The notes: a model not told the origin generated them from the letters alone. A stretch of DNA of 64,000 bases from Nemertoderma westbladi (GCA_032718475.1 JAUCBJ010003122.1:20490-84489), one strand, 5' to 3'; shown: positions 4,202 through 60,200, numbered from the stretch's first letter. Program-made: numbers and translations.

Positions 4202-4451
4202 GGCGGGGTAGCTCAGTTGGTTGAGCGCCGGGCCTGCAATCTATTGGTTGTAGGTTCAGCCCCGCCAGGTTCCACTCAGCCTTTCATCCACTGGGGTCGA
4301 TAAAATGAGAACCAGTGAGTACCAGTTAAATAACTGGGAGCAAATCTTGATAGGAGTAGCGACCACACCTACCCTCGGGTAGCAGCTATCGAAAGAGGAG
4401 CCTTCGGGTCGCCTCCGGCTTCGGCCGACTGTTTGCTTGTTTGCTTGCTTT
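4202..4451 (+). mobile_element. tRNA-derived SINE
   Basis: tRNA-like head with A box (tagctcagttggttgagcg) and degenerate B box (ggttcagccc). Central block ctcagcctttcatcc..ggggtcgataaaatgag..ccag resembles, from memory, the Sauria/Meta-type SINE core. Ends in a (TTGC/TTGT)n tail. Confidence 0.8.
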
Positions 4452-5704
4452 ACATTTTAATAGCTTGCTATAGGTGATAATATAATAAAAATAAAATAAA
4501 ATAAAATTATTCTATAAATTTCAATTCTTATAAAATTATACTGTATTTCATTTTTTAAATGCACAAAAAAGTAAATAATTATTTGGCGGATCGTGTATTT
4601 TACATAATCTATAACTTAAGTTTAAATTATGACTATTTACCGGTAATAAAACCCATTGATACCAACTGTAAGCCTACTGTACATTCAATACAACATACAC
4701 TCATGTACACGAACAGAAAAGCTAGGATTGGCTTGAAGCCAGCCCCAGCTGAGTATATTCCTGTATTGTATCATGGCAACAGTATAAACTTATTAATATA
4801 AAGGCAGAATACAGATAAGATGGAGTAGGGTAGGATACTGTTGTACCGATACTGTTGACACTGCTGGATACTGTTGTTTTGGCTATGCTACATTGTTGGG
4901 TTGTACCGTGAGTGTTGGCATTAGTACTGGACTGGGCAAGGTAGATGGAGCGCACTTTGTATGTATAATTCAATATACCGTATCAGCTTTTTGTGATTTG
5001 ACTAATAATGCGTGTTAGTTCTTCTGGCTCCTTGTCCTCATCGGACGCTTTTTGCAGCATTATGTTACTGTTGAGAATGTACCGGTACCTAATTCGACTA
5101 CCAGTACAAATTGGCCGTTTTTATTGTTAATTTGCAACCTTCTGAAATAATTGAATTGACATACATTGCCAACCCATACACGCCGGTATGAGGTAAGGCC
5201 TACCTAATGTGGAAAATGTGACTGGCATTGACATGGCATCATAGCCTTAAGATATCAAAAGAGTTATACGTAATGCGGTAGGTTATAATGGAATACGGGA
5301 AGACGTGAAGTAAACCGTAGAGTAGCAGTAGAGTCGGCGTTTTGGATGTAGACCGAAACGGATGAATTCCTTAAGTTTACATCCGTAAAGTTCACACCCG
5401 ATATATGCAAATTAGAGGTACCGGTACTTGCCATCTTTAATAATAGTACTACTGCCTACCCGGGGCTGGTAGCTCTTATGATAAACAGCCAATTACAGTA
5501 CATGACAAACACATTGCAATCTCAATCAATAGTCACCCTAGTCTGTTTCTGTATTATGTAGGCCTAGTCTATTAAATCCGACGTATTAAATTTTGATTTT
5601 TCACTTATTTAATTCTCATTATTTTTCCACCATTTACATTTGAGCTAATGAACTTCATTATTAACTATTTTCAATCACAATAAATCATCGAAGAACCACA
5701 TTAA

Positions 5705-5707
5705 ATG
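5705..5707 (+). CDS. LZTFL1: LZTFL1 coding exon 1 (ATG only)
   Basis: ttaaATG|gtaagt is a perfect donor directly after ATG. Phase 0 joins exon 2 to give MATSNK... Confidence 0.6.
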
Positions 5708-41700: not shown

Positions 41701-44700
41701 GAAAAGGCCAGTTATATCCCCAAAAGCTTTTACACCGCTCCCAGAAAATGGGATTTAATTATATAAAATATAAAAAATCACAGTTTCTAAAATATAAAAA
41801 TACTCTAAACAGTTAGTCTTTCTTGCGCGGACGGCGTTTACGCAGTTTCTTGAGGCTAGCAAGAGTCCTTTTCTCTTTAGGGCGAGCCACTTTACTAGGA
41901 GGGCTATAACTCCTGGGTGAAGGGTGCAATACAATTGCATCAGAAGGTTTAAGGTTACGGTCGGTGTCTCGTCCATTTCGATATGCTTCTCCTCGAGCTG
42001 ATTTTCCTCCGCTTGTCGTTGGATACGTTCGTCCAAAACTCTCGCAGAGAATAGGGTTGTCTAAGTTCGATATCTTCTTAAAGATTCTGGATTTCCCGAT
42101 CGAACTGAGATATGGTTACTTTGTTTACCGCTTGGACTTGCTAGTGCAATTTACGTTTACCTGAACAAGCGTAAGTTCCTTTTCTGATCTTTGTAGAATA
42201 GCGTCTAACTCATTTGGTACAACGCTCTCCGCCACTTTGGTGACAGGTTATATCGTGTTAAGCCGGGACGATGGTAAGGGTTAAACGGCGATATTAAATG
42301 TCCGCGTCCCAATCCGGCTAGGTAGGATGGGCTAATATCTAGGAAGCCCACAACCGGGGTGCCACCGACTAATCGTTCAGGTAACACTAGATCTTTGAGT
42401 AGTGAGTACAGCTGGGGAGGATCCGTCATACTAATAGGATCAAGAGTCTGAGGTCTCACTAGGGAATGAGGAGATCTGATCGAGTATTCCGAAACTCTGA
42501 TCATTGGTTTATTTAAGGATCGTCTGAGTCGAACGAGCGTAGGTGATACATCGAACAAGTTTCGCTCGAAACTCCCGTAAATATAGCGAGTAAAACCGTG
42601 TTTAAAGCAACGTCTCCGCGGATGTTTATGTCTTTCCGTTTGTTGGTTGGGTCTTGGGCATTCATCGCAACAATACCAAAAACGCACGTCTTGTAGGGGA
42701 AACGCGAGTGATCTTTCTCCAGCTTACAATATTCCTCCATCCGTTCGAAGCTATCCGGTACAACAGGTAGCGGTCGATCGGCGGTTAGATACATCATAGT
42801 GGAATAGAGCCGTTTGAGTTCTACCATGCGGTCATGATGTATACCTTGAGGATATCGAGTTTCTAGATTCTGTTGACTGGTAATATCGAGATAGGTTTCT
42901 CTCAAGAATTCCAGGTATTTGGTGAAGTCGCTGCGTTTATCCGGCTCTTCAACATCTGCACTTTCGAGTCGGTTTCGAATAGAATTTTCGTGTTCGAGTC
43001 TCAGTTTATCGTTCCGCTTCCGCTGGGTATGATATTTAAATAAAACCATTTCCCTTTTGGTGTCTATATCGTTCGTATCGTGTAGGTCGATAGGATGACC
43101 AGTAGTTAAGAAGTCCATATACGTACCATTACGATGCGTATAGCGAGCGGTGAATTTTCTACAGTCCAATTCACGCGTAAGTTGCTTCCTGGGACATTGG
43201 CGGTTCGATATAACGACCATCGTCCTCCGTAGTAGTTGGACCAGCGTCGCCGCGTATCAAGCTATCAACAAACGCTTGTAAAGGTAGAGTATATCGCTCC
43301 CTGATACCAAGATCATCTTCTATCAACTCAATCATATCTGCTATATAAGTTTATCCATATTATAATGAGTTTATATTTAGGCGAGCGGGCGTCGCTGCCT
43401 ACCCCTCTCTGCCCCCGGACAGTGTGAGATCCTCAGCGCTGGTGTACTTTCGCCGATGTGCCTATCGCCAACGTCGTAGCTGCACAACGACTACAACAAC
43501 CAGCACGAGTCACTCCACCGTCCGTCCCAAAGGCTTAGATATACTTCAGGTTCTTACTGGAGAGTTAGGGCTACTTTCACAATTGCGACTCGCTACTGTA
43601 AACACACCTTAGTAGTAACATTCACCTACAAACGCACAAATTCCACGTAACTGTCACAAATGGTACACATTCTATCACACATTCGGGTCATTTGTCCGTT
43701 AGTCAAGTGCCTTCCAGAATGTCACGTTGTTATTATGTATCCTTGGATACTAGCGGTGTGCTATTTATTCCGTATGCTATTCAATGAGCAAGCTTTTTAT
43801 TGTTCTGTTAACTCGCTTCTAATTCTAGCGTGGTTGTTGCTATGGTGACATTATGGAAAGCTAGCGGTAGAATTAGGGTAATTCTCATGCATACAGATCT
43901 GGGATGCTATTTAATAGTAAGTCTTTAATGGTCAATATCATCTTTATACATGATTTTATGAATTTTATCGGCTATTGACTCTATATTGGAGATTCTCGCA
44001 CACTAACACACTTAATGGGTGAATCTCCGCTCCCATGATCTATTAATTAATGGAATTTTGGGAATATTATAAATTGTATAAAATAACAATTTATCAAATT
44101 CATTAAAAGATGAATTTAAATTTATTCCCGTAAATTTTATTATTTAATATTAAATAGACACAATTTTATTCCAGAACATGTCTGGGGACTGGGATCCTTG
44201 ATTCTAGGAATTGATCTTTTTAAGAATATCGGTAACTGCTACGATATCTTAATAGACTAGAATTTTAAAGGATCTAAAATTTGACAGATTTTATAAATAT
44301 TAATAATTAATATTTAGGATGGGCACCAGTTTATTCCAGAACAAGTCTGGGGACGTTAACCACTGATTCTAGAATTTTGTCTTTCAAGTATATCGGTGGG
44401 TGCCGCGATATCTTAATCGACTAGAATTGCAGCTGGTCAAAGGGTTTAACAGATTTATTTTGCGTTGTACGCTACTGTTAAAGGGACATCACGCTACTAT
44501 ATGTATTATTTAATATACGGTATGAGAGCAATATCGCACGAAGCAATGTCAGTGAGAAGAGGCAAGTCCTTTCCAAGGTCTACCCAGAGCTTGGTTTAGC
44601 CGAGACACGAGGATCTGAACTTTGCATTCCTAATACTCTGCCTACCAATAATACTTAAATATAGTAGGAGCTTTATTGTACTTTAATAAGTACGGATATT

Positions 44701-47700
44701 TCATCTTACTGTAGTCACGTATTTATAATGTAATACGGACAGTAAGGAAAGAGAAAAAGAATTATTTCTCACCGTCGCACTAAATATAATATATAAGTAA
44801 TTAAGTAATAAACACTAATATATTGCACTAATCTACTAAATAATCGCTAAATAACATTTGACTAAGTAAAATTAAAGAAAACGATTAGAATAAAATTACA
44901 TAATAATACATACATAATATAAAATAATAAAATAAATATAAAATAATATGGTCACACACCCACTCCATATGTTGTTACGTTATGGAGTCCCTAGATATTT
45001 GTTGGATTAGGGAGGTGGTCGTGGGGAGAGTATCTTGCCTTCCATAATTTCCGGACAGTTTTCGGTCTCTTTCCAGTAAACATAAACGACCAGCTGGGCG
45101 ATTGAGTGGTTGTGTTACTTTCTCCGCTCCCTTGGCCTTTCTAATCTTAGCCGGGTTAAGGTGGGGAGGCCATTCATCTTCTTTACTTAGGAAGTTGGGT
45201 CCACCTAACCGGTCTGGAGTATCTGTCAGTTCTTGAGGAGTTGCTCCTCTGGAGGCGATGTCGGCTAGATTAATCGTCTCGGGGCAATGTCTCCATTGAT
45301 CTACATTGGAGTTGATGTCGTCATTATCTGAGGAGTATGGTGTTCCCTCAGTTGGATCGTCTAACTCACTGCTCTCATCTTCCCATTCTCTTACTTGATA
45401 TACCTGATCTTTCGGTAATCTTTCCATGAGAGTTCTACGGGAAGGGCCAGTAAAGTACCAACCCACTCTAGTTCTTCCCGCATAAGCTTGTAGTGGTTGC
45501 GGTTGAGCAGGCCGTTTCTCCAATGTCTCGAGCGCTTCATGCGCATTTTGACCGATGAGTATTTGGACTCCAGGGTAATCGGTGTTGAATCTAGGTATTT
45601 CAAGCTGCTGGGTGAAATCGTCCTCATCCCAGTTATAAGGTTCCACTTGGCTGGTCGCGAAGTTCTTTATCGCTACCATTTTTACTGACCTTATACTATG
45701 TTCTCCTAGTTCATCCTGGGGGGTGGACAACGCGCCTACATAATAATCCGCTATTACGGTAGATTTCCAAACTTGCATAATTCCTGACATGTTTAGCTTA
45801 GTTCGGAACTGGGGTTGTCCAGCAAAGATGTCTTCGGCTAGTTCTTTGTCGATGAATGTTCCTGTGCTACCGGAGTCAAGGAGGGCGTTCACTATATAAC
45901 TCCTTTTAGGTCCGTGGACCCTTAACTGTACTACAGGAAATTCTCGGATTCCTACATTGGAAGTTGGCGCTTTCCAAGATGGTTGTCGATCAGAAGTAGT
46001 TAGGGGGAGCTCACTGTCGGTTTCCTTCTCATACGTAAGTGCTCGATACACTGCGGTATTTATTAAGTAACAGGATTCGTTTTCGTCTGATAATTCGTCC
46101 GTATAGAATCCTTCCATTTCAGAACTTTGGTCGGAGAATTCGTCCGTATAGAATCCTTCCATCTCAGAACTTTGGTCAGTGTCGTTCACATCACTGAATT
46201 GGACATGTAGTTCGGACTCACTTACCTGACTCGGGCTGTTTCTTTCGAATTCGGTGTGCAACAAAATATGATGTTTCGCGCCGCACTTCGCACACCTTGC
46301 GTCGGAGTAACAGGTTCGCCGTTGGTGTCCTCGTCTGAGACAATTATAACACAACCGCTTATCCCACATGACTTCACATCTATCCTTTAATGATTTCTTT
46401 AGGAATTCATTACACACATTTAAACGGTGGGGCCCGTCGCACAACACACATTTGGGCTTGATGTTACTTACTTTAACATGTGCTGTGTGGTGCACGCTCG
46501 TTCTTTCCTCGGGCTTTCTTCCGTGAATTCTTTTAGGAGACGTGGGAGGAGTTTTTCTTACCTGTTCTCTCCTGTCATTGGTTCGAGACTTGAATTTACT
46601 TACCTGTTCTTTAGGCGTTTTATTGACATAATAAGATCTTTCAGTGTCTTTCCCGCTATCCTCTCCTTGAGAAGTTTGGCTTTCGCCGTCGTCTGTATAA
46701 CACACTGGTGTTACCTTTCTCCTAGAGACGGGTTTCTCACTTACCTTACTTTCCGATGTCTTCTCTCTGGACTGCTTTATGAGCTGTAATTTCACTTCGC
46801 CGTCCAAGAATGACATGAGATCAGCCATGGTAGGGTCTCGTTGTTGTTGTTCCATCATATATAACACTTTCTTGTCCCAACGTGTACCTACTCCACCCTT
46901 CGGTAAAGTAGAAGTCACTGCTCTAATAACCATAGCACTCTGATACTCATGAGACTTGCCTAGCCAATCTAATTGTCGGCAGATCTCCTGAATCTCATCG
47001 GAAAACTCTATAATCCCACTGCTAATAAACTTTCGGGGCGCTACCAACTTTGCATACAAATACCCAGCTATGTTATTCCTATTACCATACCTGAAGTTTA
47101 GAGTATCCCAAACTTGTCTTAATCCATCTGGATGTCCAATAAATTTTAACGCCATTAACTTGGGAGGTCCTTCCAAGCATTCGATGAGGTATCTGAGTTT
47201 CTCTCCGTTAGATAGCACAGAGTTCTGTATGTTATCTTTGTAATATTCATTAAAAGGTAACCATTTCATCTCATCTCCATTGAACTTGACGATCTCTCCA
47301 ACCTTTACCGCTTGACGGGCTTCGGTTCTAGCCATTTGACGCGTAAAACTTTCTTGAGCCATCGTATTATTGAATATAGAATTATCGGTATATAAATTTC
47401 TCGGATTATGATCAGGTCTATATGGAATATCATTATCAACAGGTTTATAATTACCCTTAATAGGGTTTACTATAGGAGTTTCTACTTCACTAGCAGTATA
47501 GATGCGTGTAGGCTCCACACCTTGCGCATGAAATACTTCAGACCTAACAGGTTGACACATTGTTACAGAGGGTGGTGGTATACCCTTTTGTAAATTTACT
47601 AACTTATCGCGTTCTGACGCGATACTCTGCTGCACTTCTTGCAATGCTAACCTACCCTCTCTTACTGCTCCCTTTAACTGCTGAACAGTCCCTTCCAACT

Positions 47701-50700
47701 CCCAGACCTGCTGGGAGGAACATTTACAATGTTCCCTCAGCTGCCCGAGCAGGAGACCCATCTTCCGTCGTCCCTCAGCTACCCACTCGACCGCCGAAGC
47801 GGGAGTCGCCAACGTAGTAGCGGGCAAGCAAGAGACGACGGGCGATAAATTCTTGATATCTCGCTCGGCGTCCAGGATGGGTTCGGACTCGGGAACAGTC
47901 CTACTGGGCACAGGTAGTTTCGTGCTGTGCAAAGGGAATTTAGAGGTAGGTTCTGGGAGTACAGGTGTCTCTATCACCGAAGGGGTGGCTTCGAGAACAG
48001 GCCTAATTATTTCAGGCTCATCTACTATAGTAGGGAGTCTTTCTACTGTAATAATTTGGTCTGTGCTAGCTAGTCTCACCGCAGGAGGCAAATTAGGTAA
48101 CTTCGGACAGTGTGGCATTCTTCTACGCCTGCTGAGACGAGATCTATTTCCTCCGCCTTCAGGATCTGTTATATCACCTTCATCAGGCTGCTTCGCCTGA
48201 AGGCTTTCCAGCTCTAGCTGGGTAGTCGCCCCAGACGCCTCCCGTTCTGCTTCTGCCACTGCCTCTGCCGCTTTTCTTTCCGCTTCTGCCGCTGCTACTT
48301 TTCTTTCCGCTTCTATCCTTTCAAGACACTGTCCAAGTCGAAGACTCATTCTAACACCTTTCAAAAGACTATCTGACAGTGCCCGTTTTGTGTCAGACAT
48401 GTTGGTTTGTACAGTTGAATGCCTACTGCTATATTACAGTTTAAGCAAGTCTCGTAATTCAGTATCACTGTTAGCCTAGTAATTAATTACCGATACTGCT
48501 ACTCAGTGTAGCGTGATATATATATAATATATCAGAATACCGGTATGCTTATAATATATATAAGTATTATTACAGACTAGGTTTGTCACAGAATACCAGT
48601 ATATAATTTTAGCACAAATATATATAAATATATAATAGGCCTATCGTGAATACCGGTATACAGCTTACACTTATAGTATATATAAGTATAATTATGGACT
48701 AGAATTAATTACAGAATACCGGTATAATTGCCGCCTAAATTTATAGAAATAAATATAATAAGCCTATTGTAAATACCGGTATATCAATTATTTTAGAATA
48801 ATTGAATTTCTGAATTTTAGGGGTTACTTGGTTACTTTAACTTACTTTATTACCGTTATTTGAGCAGTAGTCCAACTGATATTGAGACCTAGTTGTTGTA
48901 TGACAGGCCTACTATTTTATAAATCGGTTTGAGTTGATTTATAATATATATACCCCTATAATGGGTTTTGTCAATATTTGAAATAAATGTTATTATTTCT
49001 GGGGGGAGTCACTACACAGAAGCTGTGCGCTCTCAGTGGAGTGCTACTTGTTGGACACTAAAACAAATAATTCTAATTTACCTAAGTTACTTAATACTAC
49101 AAATTACGTACAATTCGGGTTGAGATTACAATCTCTAAATAAACACAAAAAAATTACAAATACACAAATACGAATTTTTAGGGTAATTTTACAAGAAGTC
49201 TACTAACCAGCCTAACAAAGGGTTAGAATATCTGGTTATTACAACGGACAGGGTACTACGGTATTTGAAAATAATAAGTAGTAGTAAATATACTGCGTTG
49301 TCCAGATAGGAAAATACCACCGTCTGACGACTTATAGCCGTATCGCTATAAGTACTACGTTATGTATCACGGAGTGTTCCTACCCAGAAGTTAATTACCG
49401 CGGTCTACCAGAACCAACGTGCCTATTAACCACTTTACAACACAAATATACTGTCCCCAAACTAATCACCTTCGGAAAGCACTGTACACTAAACCCTAAA
49501 TTAGGTACAAGTACTTGTACAACAAATAATCAGTAGTTAGAAATACTTGTACAGCTAAAAGAACCACGGCATCTGCTGGAGTGACCGGTGCACAAAATCA
49601 CCAGTCTTTACCTACGCCAAGCAGCCCTGATGTAGTACCAGGGTTAGTTTAACTATAACGGTATGTATAACAAGCACAATTACTGTAGGAATAAACTTGG
49701 AGACATGAATGTTGCGAATAATAGCATAAACTCTGAATAATAAATATTACGCTACGCGTACAGACTACTCAAACAAAATGCAGACTAAATACTGACAGAC
49801 TACTATCAAGCCTAAACAAACTACGGTATATGCAGACTCCGAAATGGTTAGTTAGTATGCGTTCTAACCTAGTAGTACGACTTATTCTTTCAGAGGGGGT
49901 TTACCTCACAGCACTGGAAGCCCCTATGTTCCCAACTGGCACTTTATCGGACATACACTCTACACACACCGAAACTTCCTCAGACCCAACAACAGCCAGA
50001 CAACTATCCAGCCTACAAATTATCTAAATAAGAATTATACGCTACCTGTACAGACTACACAAACAAAGTACAGACCAAACGATGGCAGACTACTATCAAG
50101 CCTAATTAAACTACAGTATATGCAGACTCCGAAATGATTAGTTAGTATGCGTTCTAACCTAGTAGTACGACTTATTCTTTCAAAGGGGGTTTACCTCACA
50201 GCACTTGAAGCCCCTACGTTCCTAACTAGCACTTTATCGGACAGATGCTCTACACACACTGCAATCCGTTCAGACTTAACAACAGTCAGACAACAGTCCG
50301 GCCTACAAATTATCTGTACAATCTGAGCAGGCTTACACGTCTTCTGCTCAATATTAACTTACAGGTAAATAAAACCAACAGAAATAAGTAAACTATACAA
50401 AGGAATGAGGGGTGATCAATCCCTAATCCCCTAGCAGCCTACAATATACAATATCATAATCGAAATAGTACTGCTGTACCCGTACTGTAAGTAAGTACCG
50501 GTCCGGATGATCAGGCAGTCAGGCCTACTGGTTACCGGTCGACCGGTACTATCAACTTGATTGCTTACGCCGCAATCAAGAAGCTATAACTGTTACTGTT
50601 CGCGCTTTTAAGACCTTTGGCAGTTTAACCCTCCAAATCTATATGTCTTCTAGGTTATAAATCGACTTTAGCCTATGACAAGTATTTGACACAAATAAAT

Positions 50701-53700
50701 CCAACATTAGCCGAAGCCAGTCTATGCGCGACCATTCACCCGCTGGATATACCCGGGAGACTGGATTCGGATGCTTTAATTTGATTGCGGTGCAGGCCTA
50801 CCGTACTATTCGATTGATCGTTAATATAATTCCTGACAAATATCATTCACTTTCGGGAGATATTAGCAGTTCCTTTAGGACGTGGCGCTCTATCTATATA
50901 AACAGAGCTATGGCTTACACTAAACACAACGGAATGGATTATAAGTTACACATAAGGCGCATTCTTTAGGAGATGCTTTGTTACGCGGACAAGCACATAC
51001 AGACTATTGCACACCGCTGCACACTGAATTGCTGATAGTCACTGATTTTAATCATATATAAAGAGAATAGCAACCGACATTTGTAGGGCCTATAAAATAG
51101 CATTCAATTCACTACAAACCACGATAATATAAGTCGCAATTGCTATATGTAGCCGGTCTCTCTAACCTTAGTGTATCAAGAAGATCGGGGTTTCTGATCG
51201 TTTATCGTTATTCTCCAAATAACAATATGTAAACGAATGATACATTTAATAACTAACAGCAAATAGCAGTAAATAATGTGCAATACGTACCGTACCGTTA
51301 TGTGTTCTTAGTGTCTCGTACCGCTGTACCGTGCCGGTAACAGTTATGTGTTCTTATAATTAAAGCCGTTCTAATGTTGGAATAATTCAGAATAATTCCA
51401 TAGCCGATGTTCATGGCATCAGGAAAACCAACACACTGAACCCTGTGAGCTGTTGCAGGTAGCTTTCAACACAAAGAGGAAAAGCTCTCATTGGCAGAGT
51501 TCCAGTTTCTATAAGTTCCATGAATGTCTAAATGCCAAACCTCCCTAGCCTTTGCAGCCCATAGCCAACACAAGGCTAAATCGCTCTGATTGGTCGATCA
51601 TTGTTCTGATTGGTTAATCGAACAGAACAAAGAGGCCATGCATACAGCAAATCAGCCAACCAGCGGGCGGATTGTGCCACTAGAAGCAACAGTTTAGAGG
51701 ATTTGAGCGAATGGGGGAAAACTGGATTACAAATGGAAAAGGCCAGTTATATCCCCAAAAGCTTTTACATATTGAAAGGTCCATAGCTTCCCCTTACTCT
51801 TTTCGAATGTGTTGTTTGTTGGTATCAATTCACATTCTTCCATTAGGTCTAAAAGAAAGTACACATTTCTGTTAGAACTGGTGTTATAGGTGTAACCCTT
51901 GATGTCTTCTGGGTCAATTTGCGCATTCAGGTCACCAGCAATGACTTTAACATTGTGTTTCGGAATGTCCTTTATAAGTCCAGTCAGTTCTTCCTAAAAC
52001 TTGACTGCTTGTTCTGGCTCTGACTGTCTGAGGCATTGGTTAGACTGTAGCAACATATAACTGTTGCCTTGGGATTCCCATCAAATGTTGCGATCATAAC
52101 CCTGGAATTTATAGATTCGATGTTGTTTACGGTCTTAAGTGCAAATGGGCTTAGCAGAATTCCTACTCCACCAATTGATGCATTGGCCGAGTTTCTTACT
52201 GCTGAGCTTGTTACTAACGTCCATCCATTTCCAATGTCATTGTACTTCATGGCAGTGTCTTCATGACAAATCCGATGTTCTTGGATGCAGATGATGTCGA
52301 TGTTATATTCCATTGCCAGAGCGACCATGTCACCCTGTTTGGTATGTGTTTTCAGCGTGCGTGCGTTCATTGTAGCAATCTTTAGTGTCTTTTTACATTT
52401 CAAGAGGTTGGTTCTTCTTCTTCTCTGTCTGTCCTCTGTCTGTAGATATGCTATCTGTCCTACCTCTAATATATGTACTTTTCCTTAAAACCTCACAATT
52501 AAGTAATTTTGAAAAACAACATTTTCAAAGATTTCTGAAAATACCGGTATCCAAATTTGAAAAGGGTTTAAATTTAAATGCAAATATTTAAATTTGGACT
52601 TCATTTAATTTTATGTCATGTCCCGGTACCAGACTGCCAATTGAATGCTAATTCAATGGTGCTGGTCCTGGGATGGTGCGGGTCTGCGAGGTCACGACAT
52701 CCCCGCGCAGTATTGACCGGCTGCTTGGGCTCTTCATCGACAACGCATCGGCTCTTAAGTTCAAGAAACAACTGGACGCGCTCTACACAACTGTATAAAT
52801 AAATATTACTATTACTCTATAAATATTAACTCAACATCAATTTGCAATATTTATTGTTAACTATTATTGCAAGTATAATCTATATTTAGCAATATTTACC
52901 GGGGCAACTACTGCAGCCGGTATAGGTAAACCACCATTGAATGCTAATTTGTATGTTGGTGTTAATCTATATTATCATCACTTTTCTCTCTGTCGGGCAG
53001 CAGGGCACAGCACTGACCGGATTAACACATCCGGACAGACATCCGGAATTTATTCTGTATAATATAGCAGTATTTAGGCCCATTCGGACAGTATCAGTAT
53101 CCGGAAATTTTCATGGACCAGATGTATTTCGGTTTGCTTCATACTAAAATTTAAGTTAATGGTTTTGCCTTAGCTGTCTGGAGGCCCATATTTAACCAGC
53201 AGATCATATATTATGGGTATTGAGAATTTCATATCGTATATAAAGCAACATTTCGGTGAACCTGAATCATCGAACAAAGACATTACCGGTAATGACAAAA
53301 ATAAAACACCGACCCAGCGGCTCCAGCATTCATACAACCTCATATAAACTGTCTAAACAAAGTGGAACTGTTTTCCTTGGCCAAAGACCGCAAATCACGT
53401 AAAGGCAATCCTTTGTCGGTTGTTTTAGATGTCGACGCTTGTCTCCCCCGTCTGTACGGCGGCTACGCCGTGGACTGGGCCTGTGGCGGCCAATGGAACC
53501 AGATGTTTCGATTCATTGACGCCCTTGTCAAAGCCTGTAGGAGTGAAAAAATTTCATTGGTAGTTTTTTTTAATGGCTGTTTAGAAAAAGACAAAATAAA
53601 TCAGTGGGCCCGACACCAAGACAAAGTTTGACAATCAGCGCTGTCGGTGCTCACCTTAGCTCACAATAAAGGAATCCCGCCCCCTAAGGCATGGTGGTTC

Positions 53701-56700
53701 CCCCCAACTGGGGCGGAAACCGCGCTCAAATGCACCCTCCTCCACCACCAGCAGGAAAGTCAGCAGCAGTCGGCTCAGACCACGGTCACGGTCCGGTGTA
53801 GTCGATATGACCACCGTCTGGAGCTCCTCCACTACTGCCGCACGAAGCTGTGCTACGGGATCATCGGGCATCACTCGGACTACGTGATATTCGACCCTCC
53901 TCACTTCCTGTCGGGTGCCGACCTTGTCCTGGCCCGGACTCATACCGGTCTCCCGATTCTCCGTGGTTGTCGCAACGTTGTTTCTCCAATGTCCAGTATC
54001 CCCGTCGCCTTCAAGTTTCTACCTTGTATTGTTTGCCAGAGAAGTAGATCTGGTATGTTTACTTCTTTCCACTTTCCACTGTGGCTCGAAAGAACTTAGT
54101 CTCCAAGTGCTGGAGAATTCTGATTTCCATATGGTATCATTTTTTATAGCGCTACCCCAAGCCTTTGCTCTCCTAACTTCTATGTCCTTTTTGCTCCTCT
54201 CTATCCATGACCCTAGGTACTGGAAGTCGTCAACCTTCCTTCGTTGATTATTATCAATGGTTGTCAAGTTTCCATCAACATTAAAGGTCCTGAATTCGGT
54301 CTTGGTAGCATTTATATGCAATCCAACCTCCTTAGCAGCCCTCTCCACTTTATTTAGTAAAAGCTGTGCATCTGTTAGCGTATTAGAGAGCAGGGCGATG
54401 TCATCCGCAAAGTCGGTGTCTGTGACTGTAGTTGCCGGATATCTGCAACTTTAGCGTTCTTGAAGTGTGAATCCCAGATCGTCATCCTCTGTGGCCGTCC
54501 TCATTGCGTAATCCAGATCAATTACAAATAGTAATGGTGCTAATGTGTCACCTTGCAGTACGCCAGCCAGGATTGAGAAAAACTCAGTTTCACCATCTGG
54601 TGAGAGTACCTGAGCTTCTGTGTAACAATTATTATTCATTCCTTTCGTACACATTGCAAAAAACACAACAAACTGGTACAATAGTATTGATAATACTTAC
54701 TTTGTATTAAATGGCAACTTTTATTTTCGTAGTTATCTGATCCCGACGTGATCAACCAGCTACGGACCCTGAAAGATAAGAACGCCTTCGCGTTAGACGT
54801 TCCACCAGAGGGGAGGTCACAGGTTTTGGACGAGGTGAGTTTAACAGCTGTTTAATTTTATTATATAATAACAACTTAATTAAGTTACTATGTAGCTAAT
54901 TATGAAACTGTAAAATGTGCAATGACACCGACCCGTTTATCTAGGCGAGTTAATGTAGCATAAAGCCAAAAAGTAATTGGCAATGAACCCGAACCACTTT
55001 TTTGGATTCTATATTACCTTGTTAATCACCAAATAGTCTATAAAAAATTATTTTGCGGAACATATATAATTATTCATTGAAATTCCACATGAATTGGCTT
55101 AACTCAAGCCAAACAGTAGGGGAAAGTAAGTAGCAAATTAAATTGGTGATTTCCCATTAATTCATTTCAAAATAAGCTGTGATTCAATGGGGAATTAATA
55201 AAATTTACACAGCCTGTCACACGTCAATTGTTATATCTCGGTAACTATAAGTCGCATCCAATTATTAAATATATCAAAAGTTTAATAATATTTATTAAGG
55301 TAACTATAATAATAATAATTCAGAATTCCCATTAATGTTAGCGAAGATTTTTCACGTAATAAAATAATTGTGATTGCCATATTGATTTTAAGTCAAGTGT
55401 AATTTATTTATTTGTTTTAGTTTGAAAACCACAATAGTCTATAATATAACAAATCTATTTTTTGGGGATAAGAGTATTTGAGGTCGATAAATCCGATAGG
55501 CGAGATTACATGCACCCGTTTTGTAGAGAAGTTGTGTAAATAAGGTCCTTATATTGTACCAGCAAAATTGGTATTAAAAATGATTAAATGATTAGTAAAA
55601 GTTCCGTTGCTCTGGAAACTAAATTATAACTATAGATGTGCAGTGTTCAGTCAATCGATAGTCATTAGACTAAAGATCGTCTGTACCTTATTTGGGGAAA
55701 ATCCCACAACCGTTGTTGCTATGTGAAATCCCTGTTGCTAAGGAAAGAAGCATGGAATCTAAAGTGATGCGCATAATTTATTTTTATAGACTTTCTATGT
55801 ATGTGTAGGTACGTAATTGCGATATTGTATAAGCATACCGTAGTTACCCAGAGCTACTCGCGATACAATATCGCGTTAAAGAATGTCGTGTAATAATGTG
55901 GAGAATAAATGGCCTCTGAACATTATTTTTGCAATCTTTAATCACAATATATCAGGTGTTATAAAAAAAATCAAACTATTTTACATTTTTGGAATCCTTT
56001 AAACATTTCTACACATAAAAATCACGACTAATGCGAAGAATCGATACGAAGGGTAAGATAAAATAGAAGCTTATAAAAAATTTAAAGGGAAAATATAAAC
56101 TAAATGGCTCCGTTTTAACTTCGACCGTGTGTTTTCTAGTTAAGTTTAAAATTTCATTCGATATTATATATTATATATAAAGATTTGAATAATTTTTTTT
56201 TTTTGGGGGGGGGGGTTTCTTGTCATCAGAAAATGACTCTCGTGTCATCATGAATAATATAAATAATCATAATAATGATAACTACTTTTCTTAAATTTTA
56301 GTCCATAATGGGAACAAATTAGTGAAAAAAGCGGTGTGAAAATTAGTGTGAAAATTAGTGTGAAACTTTTGGATTGTGAAAATTGATATCTGATTGAATT
56401 GAGATCTGATTTGATTGGAATCTTGATAAAATTCTGCTCTTGATGAAATATAAAAAAATATTTGTAAAATATTATTGAAATGGCGCTACCCCCGCCCCCC
56501 CCCCCCCCCTCCCCCCCTTAAGAAATGATGGAGGGGTAGTAACCACCAATTTTTGTTCAGCTTTGTCTCAAAATTATTGGTCAGAATTTTATAATTTTAC
56601 ATCCATCTCATTTTATTACTATACTTTATTATTATTTTGCCATTTAAATGTGAAAATGCAAATTTTTGAAAAAAATCACATGTAACAAATTTGATAATAA

Positions 56701-57273
56701 ATAATATAAAAGTTAATTATCGTATTAAATGTATAATTCAACACTACCAATAGTTACAAAAGTCATTTTGTTAGGGGGGAGGGGGGGGGGGGGTGAAGGT
56801 TAATAAGTTAGGGATACTAAATATCACTAAATTATTATAAATATATTAAAAATTTAATTTATTTAAACCACCTCATGTTATCAATTAACCCAAATTCCAA
56901 AAATATTTCAATTTATTCAATACCTTTTCTGCTGTCCGGTTATTATAGTAGTTAGTAAAGTAATATGCTCATGAAGTGGAGCTAATGATGCTTTGTTATC
57001 TGTAAGTTCATATTACTAAGCTCTTAATACATTTGATTCTAAATTTGGGTTTTTCGAGTATTTGTTAGCGGATTTCAATTCGTCAGTTCGTCTATACTTG
57101 ATAATGATTTTGTTGTATTTTATCTTAGAAATTAATAGTTTTGGAATTATTAAAATGTTCAATTTTATTTCTTTCGGCAGGAAAAACTTGTAAAACAAGT
57201 TGCAGCGATGGACCTCGAAGAAACAAAAGTCCAATTAATTCAAGTTCGACAAGAGTTAGACTCAGCCCTCAAT
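5705..57273 (+). CDS. LZTFL1: Leucine zipper transcription factor-like protein 1 (LZTFL1/BBS17) homolog; spliced, 3' end beyond window
   Basis: Exons 5705-5707, 6024-6163, 8366-8504, 9008-9107, 37582-37739, 54733-54834 and 57181-57273 are all GT-AG and phase-compatible, giving about 245 aa with no stops. Collinear with recalled human LZTFL1 (RFARSKRGLRLKTVDSCF; TFTIDEVS; VLLLRQLFAQAEKW; EILRLQ; LLRVQEQL). Confidence 0.88.
6024..6163 (+). CDS. LZTFL1: LZTFL1 exon 2
   Basis: ttgtttag|...CG|gtaagc. Encodes ATSNKVSEPKYQQHKTTLVNLVRFCRYRRALMMQTVEACFGDTRAS(R). Confidence 0.9.
6791..8292 (+). mobile_element. Two adjacent or nested HINE/Helentron-like non-autonomous elements (about 6791-7520 and 7648-8292)
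   Basis: Both start actagaaa(a)g(t/c)cagcaagct. agaagaccgt (6817-6826) is the inverted complement of acggtcttct (8279-8288), with variant actgtcttct at 7505. Microsatellite-like tracts (cacacagacaaacaaac; gatagaaagatagatag) and a small hairpin gact-aaaa-agtc precede the 3' ends. Confidence 0.5.
8366..8504 (+). CDS. LZTFL1: LZTFL1 exon 3
   Basis: aatatag|...GAG|gtattc. Encodes (R)VQETTYTKDEVSNMLEELEDTLRTEMEAEMMYNSRATVLLLRMLFE. Confidence 0.9.
9008..9107 (+). CDS. LZTFL1: LZTFL1 exon 4
   Basis: tttcatttag|...TTCG|gttagt. Encodes QAEQWELTFSADLGRIEDQRGMADVAAWEDKEF(G), phase 1. Confidence 0.9.
24069..24778. mobile_element. 710-bp MITE with TTAA target duplication (Kolobok-like termini), copy 1
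   Basis: TIR ggggggggtacaccatttt / aaaatggtgtacccccccc, flanked by ttaa on both sides. The empty site is a normal satellite unit. No ORF. RR...YY ends with a TTAA TSD fit Kolobok better than piggyBac. Confidence 0.9.
27810..28520. mobile_element. MITE copy 2, essentially identical to copy 1
   Basis: Same sequence apart from one extra G, and the same flanking satellite variants, 3741 bp downstream. Confidence 0.9.
32257..32459 (+). repeat. Gypsy 5' LTR
   Basis: 203 bp, TG...TA ends, direct repeat of 35981-36184. Confidence 0.9.
32486..33139 (+). CDS. gag: Gypsy Gag (217 aa)
   Basis: Two C-terminal zinc knuckles, CYNCGVAGHFARQC and CNRCTNHNHLPKDC. Confidence 0.9.
   Translation: MKLSITSDFACWETALRAEINLLVLQGKIEEEKKDEALLMKIQISVEDSILKKMHIDRRTTANSLLTKLKEVWTQLVVPTDGVNSLEFDIVSRDDVTKFDDNLRLLRYKRTISDDLAISIFIKNIKNEASRKIVLVQQFTSWDALVRFIMDTGISLTNCNQHTSHLPVSGAVKTGCYNCGVAGHFARQCFKRCNRCTNHNHLPKDCLKGKSKNDASQ
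33118..33160 (+). promoter_or_regulatory. -1 programmed ribosomal frameshift signal between gag and pol
   Basis: Slippery heptamer A_AAA_AAC in gag frame (33118-33124), 6-nt spacer, then a perfect 10-bp stem tcccagtagt/actactggga. pol is in the -1 frame. Confidence 0.85.
33139..35904 (+). CDS. pol: Gypsy Pol polyprotein (protease, RT, RNase H, integrase)
   Basis: Protease LDTGS; RT motifs RFCVDFRPLN, LDMTAGYWQ, YQDD; RNase H TDASDRAVGAVL and TDHKPL; integrase HHCC, SIDIVGP and PQGNGVIER. Confidence 0.95.
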   Translation: MGGATTGIINEPIAPFIYAEIDLNGGSPRIPMLDTGSELNLMSINMANDLSVPIIPHGIYFRTASGDVVKSRGFVQVWVKWGDIRQTFDFHVLGDPPFDLILGIRAIWTFPSILSYPIVAMTATTTTDTALSKEYFFKLFRWPSSWSSDNTKRLHDLIWEFQDIFSRSKFDVGRMKSFTHHIETSGPPIFRRQYKNAYTERENVHKIITEMHENNIISPASSPWNSPYLLVDKPDHSKRFCVDFRPLNKVTQDNKFPMPVIDELLDRLQGKKIFSTLDMTAGYWQVPLSEESKPKTAFQADHRQWQFNVLAMGLKNAAPEFQRDMQTVLRGLNTFPYQDDIINATETEEEHLESLQKIFVRLRNEGIKLKPSKCAFGLTEISYLGFIIQDGQVKPDPDKIKCIQEFPTPTNGKELQSFLGLINFYSRFAKRLATYAAPLYELTTKSKNKFKWLPEHSEVFDKVKNLFSEAVSLYIPDLSQAFIVRTDASDRAVGAVLSQIINSEEVPVHFASRTLRGSELNWSTTDKEFFSLHWAIRKFDMYLKGNEVTVYTDHKPLIGLIDKRAGNNQRQRRWLDYIQDFKLNINYIRGVENVVADTLSRLPLDSTFPNVKAAPFVPNAVCALKALSDKDSEIVARQYHDAGHYSINKTRAAILNDGLWFPKMRSTLRSIQDDCIECRTKKSYTKNPPKGELPNLETRAIGEIVSIDIVGPLPTTRLGFRYILSMIDMASRYLEAVPMKMVTAQITADAFQKGWVFRHGPPRRIHTYNGSQFRSALFNNILETAFCNYEIDHTYSSPYYPQGNGVIERIHRTLKDRIRCMSGDWQSNLSEAVYNINRHVHDGIECSPFFALYGYNVPPATYPAMLKENPSIMQSLAPPIPPPQRSTFGPKFHPPQRVVAKLSPQVVRLDQYGTVNIRKCT
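35981..36184 (+). repeat. Gypsy 3' LTR
   Basis: Direct repeat of the 5' LTR with several substitutions. Starts tttt instead of tgtg and is followed by the TSD aatag. Confidence 0.9.
37582..37739 (+). CDS. LZTFL1: LZTFL1 exon 5
   Basis: ctaatcgtccgcag|...CAG|gtaata; phase 1 matches exon 4. Encodes (G)KQVSQARPTYLQLDKLPNTQPGGRMQSEISRLQTQARETSIKLKAILEDPSQ. Confidence 0.85.
38240..40526 (-). mobile_element. RTE-clade LINE, 3' portion (RT domain, frameshifted)
   Basis: ORF pieces 39987-40460, 39126-39824, 39037-39222 and 38277-38939 with GSDHR, QNGFR, FVDFKKAFDS, GVLQGDTLAP, FADD and FQYLGSWI. (TAG)n-type tail near 38240-38280. Confidence 0.93.
40527..41734 (-). repeat. BEL/Pao 3' LTR (1208 bp)
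   Basis: Near-identical to 50597-51769 apart from a few substitutions and one ~35-bp indel. Confidence 0.95.
41755..43360 (-). pseudogene. Additional, apparently frameshifted ORF of unknown function in the 3' part of the BEL element
   Basis: Overlapping ORF pieces 42513-43220 (235 aa), 42205-42687 and 41755-42036 in element sense, in a GC-richer coding-like tract. No recognisable motif. Confidence 0.4.
44975..48400 (-). CDS. BEL/Pao Gag-protease fused in frame to an RNase H C-terminal remnant (1141 aa)
   Basis: DUF1759-like KFNGDEMKWLPF; triple knuckle CVLC..H..C, CYNC..GH..C, CAKC..HH..LH; protease ALLDSGS; then directly WRHCPETINLADIASRG..GPNFL..EWP. No YxDD or DDE region. Confidence 0.9.
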   Translation of the reverse strand: MSDTKRALSDSLLKGVRMSLRLGQCLERIEAERKVAAAEAERKAAEAVAEAEREASGATTQLELESLQAKQPDEGDITDPEGGGNRSRLSRRRRMPHCPKLPNLPPAVRLASTDQIITVERLPTIVDEPEIIRPVLEATPSVIETPVLPEPTSKFPLHSTKLPVPSRTVPESEPILDAERDIKNLSPVVSCLPATTLATPASAVEWVAEGRRKMGLLLGQLREHCKCSSQQVWELEGTVQQLKGAVREGRLALQEVQQSIASERDKLVNLQKGIPPPSVTMCQPVRSEVFHAQGVEPTRIYTASEVETPIVNPIKGNYKPVDNDIPYRPDHNPRNLYTDNSIFNNTMAQESFTRQMARTEARQAVKVGEIVKFNGDEMKWLPFNEYYKDNIQNSVLSNGEKLRYLIECLEGPPKLMALKFIGHPDGLRQVWDTLNFRYGNRNNIAGYLYAKLVAPRKFISSGIIEFSDEIQEICRQLDWLGKSHEYQSAMVIRAVTSTLPKGGVGTRWDKKVLYMMEQQQRDPTMADLMSFLDGEVKLQLIKQSREKTSESKVSEKPVSRRKVTPVCYTDDGESQTSQGEDSGKDTERSYYVNKTPKEQVSKFKSRTNDRREQVRKTPPTSPKRIHGRKPEERTSVHHTAHVKVSNIKPKCVLCDGPHRLNVCNEFLKKSLKDRCEVMWDKRLCYNCLRRGHQRRTCYSDARCAKCGAKHHILLHTEFERNSPSQVSESELHVQFSDVNDTDQSSEMEGFYTDEFSDQSSEMEGFYTDELSDENESCYLINTAVYRALTYEKETDSELPLTTSDRQPSWKAPTSNVGIREFPVVQLRVHGPKRSYIVNALLDSGSTGTFIDKELAEDIFAGQPQFRTKLNMSGIMQVWKSTVIADYYVGALSTPQDELGEHSIRSVKMVAIKNFATSQVEPYNWDEDDFTQQLEIPRFNTDYPGVQILIGQNAHEALETLEKRPAQPQPLQAYAGRTRVGWYFTGPSRRTLMERLPKDQVYQVREWEDESSELDDPTEGTPYSSDNDDINSNVDQWRHCPETINLADIASRGATPQELTDTPDRLGGPNFLSKEDEWPPHLNPAKIRKAKGAEKVTQPLNRPAGRLCLLERDRKLSGNYGRQDTLPTTTSLIQQISRDSIT
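49750..50320. repeat. Tandem duplication of about 290 bp in the BEL 5' leader
   Basis: acgctac..tacagactac..cagactactatcaagccta..tatatgcagactccgaaatg..gcctacaaattatct occurs twice. Confidence 0.85.
50597..51769 (-). repeat. BEL/Pao 5' LTR (1173 bp)
   Basis: Direct repeat of 40527-41734. CCAAT boxes on the minus strand near 51590 and 51610. Confidence 0.95.
51770..52790 (-). mobile_element. RTE-clade LINE, 5' portion (AP endonuclease and 5' UTR)
   Basis: KIATMNARTL, ICIQEHR, GGVGILL, AGDLNAQ. Removing the BEL element and one TSD restores GKLWTFQYPNGTKAQLDYIL across the junction. The 5' boundary is approximate. Confidence 0.9.
53213..53935 (+). pseudogene. FAM120A: FAM120A/C-like (constitutive coactivator of PPAR-gamma-like, PIN-like domain) 5' fragment, disrupted
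   Basis: MGIENFISYIKQH..VELFSLAK..LDVDACLPRLYGGYAVDWACGGQWNQM..VFFNGCLEK..NKGIPPPKAWWFPP..DH..SDY matches the recalled FAM120A N-terminus. Frameshift near 53330-53360, in-frame TGA at 53629, truncated by LINE sequence. Confidence 0.88.
53930..54625 (-). mobile_element. 5'-truncated, internally deleted RTE fragment (same family as 38240-40526)
   Basis: 54065-54620 closely matches 38660-39208. 53955-54057 matches the degenerate 3' end at 38310-38442. Confidence 0.9.
54733..54834 (+). CDS. LZTFL1: LZTFL1 exon 6 (probable)
   Basis: ttttattttcgtag|...GAG|gtgagt; 102 nt, phase 0-0, open. Encodes LSDPDVINQLRTLKDKNAFALDVPPEGRSQVLDE. Homology is weak but the length fits. Confidence 0.7.
57181..57273 (+). 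CDS. LZTFL1: LZTFL1 exon 7
   Basis: ttttatttctttcggcag|...AAT|gtaagt. Encodes EKLVKQVAAMDLEETKVQLIQVRQELDSALN, comparable to recalled human NLATAKHDLLRVQEQLHMAEK. Confidence 0.82.
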
Positions 57274-60200
57274 GTAAGTTCAATTCAACAAGAGTTAGAC
57301 TCAGCCCTCAATGTAAGTTCAATTCAACAAAAGTTAGACTCAGACCTCAATGTAAGTTCTATTCAACAAGAGTTAGAATCAGCACTCAATGTAAGTTCAA
57401 TTCAACAAGAGTTAGAATCAGCCCTCAATGTAAGTTCTATTCAACAAGAGTTAGACTCAGACCTCAATGTAAGTTCTATTCAACAAGAGTTAGAATCAGC
57501 ACTCAATGTAAGTTCAATTCAACAAGAGTTCGAATCAGCCCTCAATGTAAGTTCTATTCAACAAGAGTTAGACTCAGCCCTCAATGTAAGTTCTATTCAA
57601 CAAGAGTTAGAATCAGCCCTCAATGTAAGTTCTATTCAACAAGAGTTAGACTCAGCCCTCAATGTAAGTTCTATTCAACAAGAGTTAGACTCAGCCCTCA
57701 ATGTAAGTTCTATTCAACAAGAGTTAGACTCAGACCTCAATGTAAGTTCTATTCAACAAGAGTTAGAATCAGCACTCAATGTAAGTTCAATTCAACAAGA
57801 GTTAGAATCAGCCCTCAATGTAAGTTCTATTCAACAAGAGTTAGACTCAGACCTCAATGTAAGTTCTATTCAACAAGAGTTAGAATCAGCACTCAATGTA
57901 AGTTCAATTCAACAAAAGTTAGACTCAGCACTCAATGTAAGTTCTATTCAACAAGAGTTAGAATCAGCCCTCAATGTAAGTTCTATTCAACAAGAGTTAG
58001 ACTCAGCCCTCAATGTAAGTTCTATTCACCAGGAGTTAGACTCAGCCCTCAATGTAAATTAAATTCAACAAGAGTTAGACTCAGCCCTCAATGTAAGTTC
58101 AATTCGACAAGAGTTAGACTCAGCCCTCAATGTAAGGTCAATTCAACAAGAGTTAGACTCAGCACTCAATGTAAGTTCAATTCAACAAGAGTTAGACTCA
58201 GCACTCAATGTAAGTTCAATTCAACAAGAGTTAGAATCAGCCCTCAATGTAAGTTCTATTCAACAAGAGTTCGAATCAGCACTCAATGTAAGTTCAATTC
58301 AACAAGAGTTAGAATCAGCCCTCAATGTAAGTTCTATTCAACAAGAGTTAGACTCAGCACTCAATGTAAGTTCAATTCAACAAGAGTTAGAATCAGCCCT
58401 CAATGTAAGTTCTATTCAACAAGAGTTAGAATCAGCACTCAATGTAAGTTCAATTCAACAAGAGTTAGACTCAGCCCTCAATGTAAGTTATATTCAACAA
58501 CAGTTAGACTCAGCCCTCAATGTAAGTTATATTCAACAAGAGTTAGACTCAGCCCTAAATGTAAGTTCTATTCAACAAAAGTTAGAATCAGCCCTCAATG
58601 TAAGTTCTATTCAACAAGAGTTAGAATCAGCACTCAATGTAAGTTCAATTCAACAGGAGTTAGACTCAGCCCTCAATGTAAGTTCAATTCAACAAGAGTT
58701 AGAATCAGCACTCAATGTAAGTTATATTCAACAAGAGTTAGAATCAGTACTCAATGTAAGTTCTATTCAACAAGAGTTAGAATCAGCACTCAATGTAAGT
58801 TCAATTCAACAAGAGTTAGAATCATCACTCAAGGTAAGTTCAATTCAACAAGAGTTAGACTCAGCACTCAATGTAAGTTCAATTCAACAGGAGTTAGACT
58901 CAGCCCTCAATGTAAGTTATATCCAACAAGAGTTAGAATCAGACCTCAATGTAAGTTATATTCAACAAGAGTTAGACTCAGCCCTCAATGTAAGTTCTAT
59001 TCAACAAGAGTTAGAATCAGCCCTCAATGCAAGTTCTATTCAACAGGAGTTAGATTCAGCCCTCAATGTAAGTTGTATTCAACAAGAGTTAGACTCAACC
59101 CTCAATGTAAGTTCTATTCAACAAGAGTTAGACTCAGCCCTCAATGTAAGTTCTATTCAACAGATTCAGCCCTCAATGTAAGTTCTATTCAACAAGAGTT
59201 AGACTCTGCCCTCAATGTAAGTTCTATTCAACAAGAGTTAGAATCAGCACTCAATGTAAGTTCAATTCAACAAGAGTTAGACTCAGCCCTCAATGTAAGT
59301 TATATTCAACAACAGTTAGACTCAGCCCTCAATGTAAGTTATATTCAACAAGAGTTAGACTCAGCCCTAAATGTAAGTTCTATTCAACAAAAGTTAGAAT
59401 CAGCCCTCAATGTAAGTTCTATTCAACAAGAGTTAGAATCAGCACTCAATGTAAGTTCAATTCAACAGGAGTTAGACTCAGCCCTCAATGTAAGTTCAAT
59501 TCAACAAGAGTTAGAATCAGCACTCAATGTAAGTTATATTCAACAAGAGTTAGAATCAGTACTCAATGTAAGTTCTATTCAACAAGAGTTAGAATCAGCA
59601 CTCAATGTAAGTTCAATTCAACAAGAGTTAGAATCATCACTCAAGGTAAGTTCAATTCAACAAGAGTTAGACTCAGCACTCAATGTAAGTTCAATTCAAC
59701 AGGAGTTAGACTCAGCCCTCAATGTAAGTTATATCCAACAAGAGTTAGAATCAGACCTCAATGTAAGTTATATTCAACAAGAGTTAGACTCAGCCCTCAA
59801 TGTAAGTTCTATTCAACAAGAGTTAGAATCAGCCCTCAATGCAAGTTCTATTCAACAGGAGTTAGATTCAGCCCTCAATGTAAGTTGTATTCAACAAGAG
59901 TTAGACTCAACCCTCAATGTAAGTTCTATTCAACAAGAGTTAGACTCAGCCCTCAATGTAAGTTCTATTCAACAGATTCAGCCCTCAATGTAAGTTCTAT
60001 TCAACAAGAGTTAGACTCTGCCCTCAATGTAAGTTCTATTCAACAAGAGTTAGACTCAGCACTCAATGTAAGTTCAATTCAACAAGAGTTAGACTCACCC
60101 CTCAATGTAAGTTATATTCAACAAGAGTTAGACTCAGCCCTCAATGTAAGTTCTATTCAACAAGAGTTAGAATCAGCCCTCAATGTAAGTTCTATTCAAC

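Follow-up and report, generated by a model that had tools for sequence, protein, structure and literature searches.

The stretch of Nemertoderma westbladi DNA analysed here (GCA_032718475.1, JAUCBJ010003122.1:20490-84489; 64,000 nucleotides, hereafter the window) carries on its minus strand an 11.2-kb long terminal repeat (LTR) element of the BEL/Pao superfamily. The 11 nucleotides (nt) that directly follow its 5' LTR, at the place of a primer-binding site (PBS), are exactly complementary to an 11-mer located within the LTR itself. We propose, with a probability of roughly 45%, that this complementarity serves a self-priming of reverse transcription comparable to that of the Schizosaccharomyces pombe element Tf1, rather than priming by a transfer RNA (tRNA). 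The proposal is based on a single copy, and the element should be regarded as a good candidate for self-priming, not as a demonstration of it. A possible self-priming in BEL/Pao had already been suggested in a preliminary description of this stretch. The signature anchored at the LTR edge stands and agrees with a published rule for such elements, whereas the promoter-like motifs of the LTR lend no support to the transcription start that had been assumed at position 51347.

An exact LTR complement directly behind the 5' LTR

The boundaries of the element and the two complementary 11-mers are located as follows, in positions of the window, the element being read from high to low coordinates:

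50597-51769, minus strand: 5' LTR, 1173 bp, TG..CA ends
40527-41734, minus strand: 3' LTR, 1208 bp, TG..CA ends
51770-51774 and 40522-40526, minus strand: 5-bp target-site duplication CAATA, on both flanks of the element
50586-50596, minus strand: primer-binding slot GTAACAGTTAT, directly adjoining the 5' LTR
51337-51347, minus strand: LTR 11-mer ATAACTGTTAC, putative self-primer, exact complement of the slot, found again at 41302-41312 in the 3' LTR

The element thus displays the paired TG..CA LTRs and the target duplication of 4-6 bp that are general to LTR retrotransposons. Both LTRs are 99.4% identical over two aligned blocks, one of 688 nt (4 mismatches) and one of 478 nt (3 mismatches), split by a single indel near 51285, where the 3' LTR has 35 additional bp just downstream of the region of the 11-mer. 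Since the TG..CA ends and the CAATA duplication fix the edge of the LTR, the position of the slot is exact to the base. The complementarity starts at offset 0 from the LTR, and the 3' end of the putative primer would meet the LTR edge. The preliminary description had reported a slot other than TGG behind the 5' LTR, its perfect complement at 51347-51337, and a pairing that would bring the end of the primer to the LTR edge. These three observations hold, and the complement is also present in the 3' LTR (41312-41302). The 11-mer stands 751 nt upstream of the slot, and exact matches to it amount to three in the whole window, namely one in each LTR and the slot as read on the plus strand.

No TGG is encountered in the first 60 bases of the leader. 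Similarly, a search of the LTR and leader against Rfam revealed no tRNA-like structure on either strand; with E values up to 10, it returned two matches, both to small nucleolar RNA families, far below the gathering score and at chance level. The window contains no tRNA gene. In the Ty3/gypsy-type element that the window also contains, a normal TGG site (TGGCGCAGTG) closely follows the LTR, and the absence of TGG is therefore specific to the BEL/Pao element.

A match of this kind is seldom obtained by chance. The composition-based expectation of an LTR complement is 5.6e-4 per LTR, and an exact complement was present in 5 of 20,000 dinucleotide-preserving shuffles of the LTR, in line with the earlier view that a chance 11-mer match is unlikely. 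A perfect LTR complement reaches at least 10 nt at 15 of the 8,842 anchor positions of the internal region and at least 11 nt at two of them, one of the two being the slot. The published rule by which self-priming is predicted in silico demands that a stretch beginning 0-5 bp behind the LTR find at least 10 bp of complement in the LTR (PMC6317226; Neumann et al., 2019); it is looser and was passed by 205 of 20,000 LTR shuffles. With 11 nt at offset 0, the element falls within it. On these counts, plain coincidence of the match is improbable, though less so in view of the large scan from which this one element was picked.

Coincidence is nevertheless part of one alternative, which we consider unlikely, namely that the LTR match has no role and that the slot GTAACAGTTAT is bound by a host RNA, for example half of a tRNA or a segment from within one, in the manner of copia-type elements. 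Indeed, sites without TGG exist for half tRNAs in the 1/2 tRNA-Met and 1/2 tRNA-Ile lineages (PMC6317226), and the site of FunCo1 is complementary to an internal region of tRNA-Lys (PMC5445492). Moreover, the ICTV profile presents BEL/Pao elements as primed by tRNA, through an 18-nt PBS complementary to the 3' end of tRNA-Arg or tRNA-Gly (PMC8742986); that PBS is not present here, as no TGG-type site is found. A host primer is disfavoured by the rarity of an exact 11-mer at offset 0 among the shuffles, by the Rfam search, in which nothing resembled a tRNA, and by the slot itself, which does not have the layout of a tRNA 3'-end site. We also take the slot to fit a site of the half-tRNA-iMet type poorly.

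Coding content and assignment to BEL/Pao

The internal region of 8.9 kb contains one long frame only:

44978-48433, minus strand: frame of 1152 amino acids (aa) with gag (DUF1759), two or three zinc knuckles, a DSG protease region and a short pre-integrase motif

In this frame, Pfam recognized the DUF1759 gag domain (PF03564; E = 4.2e-12, residues 384-511) and no other domain. A search of 5.8 billion proteins yielded six matches with 20-32% identity, all six of them full-length BEL/Pao polyproteins with PF05380 and one of them named from Magallana gigas. These six relatives all align to the element in tblastn, in two blocks only. For one of them (P0007), the blocks cover residues 431-728 and 1292-1340, and its RVT_1 (919-1039), Peptidase_A17 (1101-1263), H2C2 (1500-1553) and DUF5641 (1775-1868) domains have no counterpart in the element. 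Both Pfam and tblastn with the relatives indicate that the reverse transcriptase (RT) and Pao domain (PF00078/PF05380 region), the ribonuclease H (RNase H) and the integrase are missing.

By the homology of its gag and protease, the element is a member of BEL/Pao, as the preliminary description had stated; it is not intact, since the RT, the Pao domain and the integrase are gone. Judging from its sequence, it is a young, internally deleted and non-autonomous BEL/Pao derivative. As RT, RNase H and integrase were lost, any priming of the element would therefore be served in trans. The gag-protease frame also includes a 45-nt tandem duplication (46081-46177, minus strand), which repeats a short acidic peptide.

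No further copy of the element is present within the window. Exact-pattern scans with the LTR end and the most abundant stretch of the unique 5' region (U5) as queries gave no match in viral_contigs, metagenome_contigs or genome_contigs. Searches for the gag-protease locus gave 26 pattern matches in metagenome_contigs and 2 in viral_contigs, none of which was confirmed.

Promoter-like motifs and transcription start

Most observations on the transcription start, on RNA folding and on read depth, given in this and the next two sections, weigh against self-priming; those that favour it or are neutral are indicated as such. The motifs concerned are the following:

51245-51250, minus strand: ATTAAA, 97 nt downstream of 51347, followed by CA and a U/GU-rich stretch; putative signal
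51353-51358, minus strand: TATAAG, at -11 to -6 of 51347
51023-51060, minus strand: putative rival core promoter, TATATAT (51060-51054) and TCAGT (51027-51023), about 30 nt apart
51343-51355 and 51297-51309, minus strand: two copies of the module AAGAACACATAAC, the first overlapping the 11-mer
51286-51336, minus strand: variable stretch directly downstream of the 11-mer, site of the indel between the 5' and 3' LTRs

Several elements of the earlier picture are found in place. The C|A initiator-like position is at 51348|51347, the two CCAAT boxes reported upstream lie at 51613 and 51593 and are joined by a third at 51494, and the ATTAAA placed at about 100 nt downstream is at 97 nt. An R (repeated) region could exist if transcription starts at or before 51347, because ATTAAA and the U/GU-rich tail follow at this distance, a point in favour of self-priming. 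The 11-mer is contiguous and is not preceded by AG, which gives no sign of a split primer, and its position is 97 nt upstream of ATTAAA rather than at a poly(A) site. For an RNA starting upstream, the ATTAAA at 51250 qualifies as a candidate poly(A) signal, and a TATA-like box is an equally conceivable reading. There is no TATA box at -30 of 51347, as already noticed, although the TATAAG at -11 to -6 had been overlooked; this motif is too close for a start at 51347.

Three promoter-like layouts may be considered, and none of them, as read from the motifs, puts the start at 51347. The TATATAT at 51060 is the sole TATAWAW motif of the LTR, and a start specified by TATATAT/TCAGT, about 300 nt downstream of the 11-mer, would leave the 11-mer in the unique 3' region (U3). 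The TATAAG at 51358 would give a start at about 51330, just downstream of the 11-mer. Finally, the CCAAT at 51494 with a TCAGT at 51439 would place the start some 90 nt upstream of the 11-mer, a position that self-priming can accommodate if the primer may be internal. That the motifs do not point to 51347 counts in favour of a host primer. A start at 51347 would also imply that R and U5 together occupy 751 of the 1173 nt of the LTR, with a U5 of about 630 nt if the ATTAAA at 51250 acts as poly(A) signal.

The immediate context of the 11-mer, a twice-repeated module and an indel-prone stretch, looks like the enhancer region of a U3. Furthermore, the similarity between both sites extends beyond the exact match, which ends at 11 nt: after a 3x3 mismatch, AAGAA (51355-51351) faces TTCTT (50582-50578), giving 16 of 19 positions, an extension for which chance was estimated by hand at a few per cent. 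The AAGAA/TTCTT pairing involves positions upstream of 51347, which would be outside an RNA starting there.

This context might suggest that the two 11-mers are merely copies of a repeated DNA module, such as a near-palindromic factor-binding site (TAACNGTTA), one of which happens to lie behind the LTR. The TAAC-N-GTTA core is self-reverse-complementary, which means that 8 of 11 bases also agree when both sites are read in direct orientation; the similarity reaches 16 of 19 bases; and the LTR 11-mer belongs to AAGAACACATAAC, which is present twice. We nonetheless hold this explanation to be very improbable. Indeed, nothing would oblige a binding site to begin immediately after the LTR, complementarity also extends to the centre base and to the two flanks, and the LTR shows no enrichment of YAACKG Myb-like cores (4 observed versus 2.1 +/- 1.5 expected). 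For want of such an enrichment, the idea that the repeated module is a Myb site was dropped.

RNA folding and structures around the slot

For an RNA assumed to start at 51347, the minimum-energy fold pairs neither of the 11-mers, and an ensemble probability of about 0.09 is obtained for the long-range helix between them, which weakly supports self-priming. The primer-PBS helix is, however, absent from the predicted minimum-energy fold itself, and its probability is 0 for RNAs starting at 51400 or 51485. In a looser test based on duplex energy, 88 of 200 shuffled leaders equalled the element, hence no significance.

The leader contains two structural motifs close to the slot:

50556-50580, minus strand: leader hairpin, CTTGATTGC, 7-nt loop, GCAATCAAG, with a 9-bp stem
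50533-50548, minus strand: leader palindrome TACCGGTCGACCGGTA, perfect, 16 nt

The 5' arm of the hairpin, TTGATTGCGG (50579-50570), is complementary over 10 nt to CCGCAATCAA in U5 (50790-50781). The stem, the palindrome and this U5-leader match are possible initiation or dimerisation structures.

Contacts between the 5' and 3' parts of the RNA near the PBS are known in Ty1 (CYC5/CYC3) and Ty3 (bipartite PBS). The complementarity of the 11-mers might represent a long-range RNA contact and not a primer, for instance between the PBS region and the 11-mer of the 3' U3 (41312-41302), joining the ends of the RNA for initiation or strand transfer, with some other primer in use. A start downstream of the 11-mer, at TATATAT/TCAGT, would still leave one 11-mer in the RNA, in the 3' LTR, and the 10-nt match of CCGCAATCAA with 50579-50570 provides a second complement around the PBS. 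A 10-nt match within the first 30 leader positions is, however, expected in about 1 case in 20, because 15 of the 8,842 anchors reach at least 10 nt. Besides, a contact would leave the primer unexplained and would not be required to end exactly at the LTR edge, and we judge this explanation quite improbable.

Read depth and variants in public runs

Contigs of four public runs (X1, X3, X4 and X5, the last from another organism) were placed on 50330-51850; the depths given below are summed over contigs and do not represent copy numbers. In X1, the summed depth was 40,553-1,656,027 on the U5 side (50585-51196, 12 bins) and 24,868-227,147 in the leader, and 1,991-19,363 in 51197-51757, the part with the 11-mer (11 bins). 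The pattern of X3 was the same, and both runs exhibited a 10- to 100-fold fall upstream of about 51197; the difference was much smaller in X4. Contigs of X5 covered 11 of the 12 bins of the U5 side and none of the 11 bins of 51197-51757.

Judging from these depths, the LTR looks composite: its U5 side is shared widely, whereas its upstream part is rarer. The boundary between LTR and leader is bridged by contigs in X1, X3 and X5, and the LTR-leader junction is therefore old and shared, a small point in favour of self-priming. The depths suggest that most elements with this U5, PBS and leader carry a different upstream LTR part, which is adverse to self-priming; in a self-priming family, every such subfamily would have to possess a complement of its own. 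A host primer acting in trans would accord with a depth of U5, PBS and leader far above that of the LTR part with the 11-mer.

Two structural variants, deletions or replacements, were observed near the 11-mer. One joins 51278 to 51338 (one contig in X3 and two in X4) and the other joins 51286 to 51335 with 11 other letters in between (one contig in X4). Both retain the 11-mer and break 0-2 nt after it, a small point that weakly favours self-priming. Among the 40 variants listed out of 212, none falls inside either 11-mer, which does not constitute evidence of conservation.

Proposed mechanism, background and implications

With self-priming as our preferred reading, replication of the element might proceed as follows. 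Transcription would begin at 51347 or further upstream, which would place ATAACUGUUAC in the 5' part of the RNA. This stretch would fold back onto GUAACAGUUAU at 50596-50586, RNase H would cleave behind its last C, opposite the first base after U5, and RT would elongate the cleaved 3' end across U5 and R. During the later synthesis of the plus strand, the primer would be copied and the PBS of every new copy thereby rewritten, keeping the two 11-mers matched. The enzymes would come from an autonomous relative, because this copy has no RT, RNase H or integrase. We thus tentatively envisage, at somewhat less than even odds, a BEL/Pao lineage that starts reverse transcription with its own RNA, from a primer 751 nt upstream that is cut in trans by the RNase H of a partner.

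Self-priming was demonstrated for Tf1-type Ty3/gypsy elements only and is predicted in a few gypsy and copia lineages (PMC7175516, PMC6317226). In Tf1, the RNA's initial 11 bases pair with the PBS, and cleavage by RNase H takes place between bases 11 and 12 (PMC7175516); Tj1 was inferred to prime in the same manner (PMC4600332). The complement found here has the same length of 11 bases as that of Tf1, and was therefore counted in favour of self-priming. A further resemblance was given no weight: ATAAC opens the PBS of Tf1 (PMC11042837) and here opens the putative primer, the roles being swapped. Among plant elements, 12% were predicted to self-prime, in the Tcn1 (Ty3/gypsy) and TAR (Ty1/copia) lineages (PMC6317226). 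As the prediction concerns both gypsy and copia lineages, the trait is not tied to one superfamily.

The replication of BEL/Pao elements is described as poorly understood (PMC8742986), and our literature search found no paper describing self-priming in this superfamily. In the available excerpts of PMC6317226, PMC3601003, PMC2864245, PMC5443660 and PMC5445492, BEL/Pao and self-priming are mentioned separately only, and the terms "primer binding", "tRNA" and "priming" do not occur in a survey of BEL/Pao (PMC3118150). If the present reading is true, BEL/Pao would be the third superfamily of LTR retroelements with self-priming, besides Ty3/gypsy and Ty1/copia, and independence from host tRNAs would have arisen, or been kept, in all three LTR superfamilies. 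Elements of this type would be overlooked or misplaced by annotation pipelines for which a tRNA-type site is a prerequisite. Beyond LTR ends and packaging, the helper of a non-autonomous element would also have to suit it by an RNase H capable of cleaving an RNA duplex.

Other features of the element and its surroundings

A short purine run adjoins the 3' LTR:

41735-41742, minus strand: candidate polypurine tract GGGAGCGG, putative function

The leader extends over 2.2 kb from the PBS to gag and is itself repetitive, with a 290-bp unit present twice (87%) and a 123-bp unit present 1.9 times (79%), at 49732-50315 and 48548-48783, respectively.

The element seems to have landed within an older, abundant repeat, because RVT_1 frames and frames of 160 and 166 aa flank the insertion (38277-40469, 51984-52484 and 54019-54450, minus strand). 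The RVT_1 frames belong to another retroelement, probably a non-LTR one, just downstream of the BEL/Pao insertion. The open frames of 160 and 166 aa have no Pfam match and adjoin the insertion on either side. A high read depth was recorded in the flank at 51758-51850.

The remainder of the window is rich in satellites. A 32-bp tandem array occupies 9092-32253 and 36188-37487 (about 726 and 41 copies, 84-87% matches) and is split by an inserted element. The latter is a compact Ty3/gypsy-type element at about 32256-36184 on the plus strand. Its gag has a zinc knuckle, its pol comprises protease, RVT_1, RNase H and integrase, its two LTRs of about 200 bp are 95-98% alike, and its TGG site TGGCGCAGTG lies 1-2 nt behind the 5' LTR. 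A 39-bp satellite is found at 57245-61996 and 62576-63115 (about 122 and 14 copies, 89-92% matches), and the long open frames at 57129-62031 are repeat artefacts of it. An apparent excess of 11-mers in the remaining window was traced to one satellite 11-mer.

Comparison with known systems

Elements devoid of a classical PBS include the fungal GalEa copia elements, with their Conserved Hairpin Site, and PBS-less TRIMs (miniature retrotransposons with terminal repeats) of bivalves, which have a hairpin of 9-bp inverted repeats near the 5' LTR (PMC5445492, PMC6934838). The 9-bp stem at 50580-50556 resembles these hairpins, but it begins 16 nt behind the LTR. According to the excerpted text on GalEa, its authors found no LTR complement of their site (PMC5445492), whereas the present element has an exact one of 11 nt.

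A PBS that does not begin with TGG is also shared with elements primed by half tRNAs or by internal tRNA segments, such as the 1/2 tRNA-Met copia-type elements, Bianca (1/2 tRNA-Ile) and FunCo1 (PMC6317226, PMC5445492). Their sites match a host tRNA, whereas the slot described here matches the LTR of the element itself. The elements predicted to be self-primed by Neumann et al. (PMC6317226) obey the same sequence rule as this one; as reported in the excerpts, they come from plants and fungi, belong to other superfamilies and are represented by many elements per lineage, as compared to a single copy here.

The closest likeness in priming signature is to the Tf1/sushi group of Ty3/gypsy, with Tf1 and Tf2 of S. 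pombe and Tj1 of S. japonicus, which have no tRNA-type site and an 11-base complement of their own LTR abutting the LTR (PMC7175516, PMC4600332). The present element differs from this group by its superfamily, by a primer located 751 nt from the PBS and by the loss of its own RT and RNase H. Moreover, the primer of Tf1 is the 5' end of the RNA, a placement that is putative here, and no stem resembling the inverted repeat of U5 (U5-IR) is shown beside the duplex.

Finally, canonical BEL/Pao elements (Belpaoviridae, Semotivirus) have an 18-nt PBS for tRNA-Arg or tRNA-Gly (PMC8742986), which this element is devoid of, and the RT, Pao domain and integrase that are deleted here. The element nevertheless shares with them a DUF1759 gag, the protease region and the pre-integrase motif, as well as LTRs of some 1.2 kb that have TG..CA ends and a target duplication of 5 bp.

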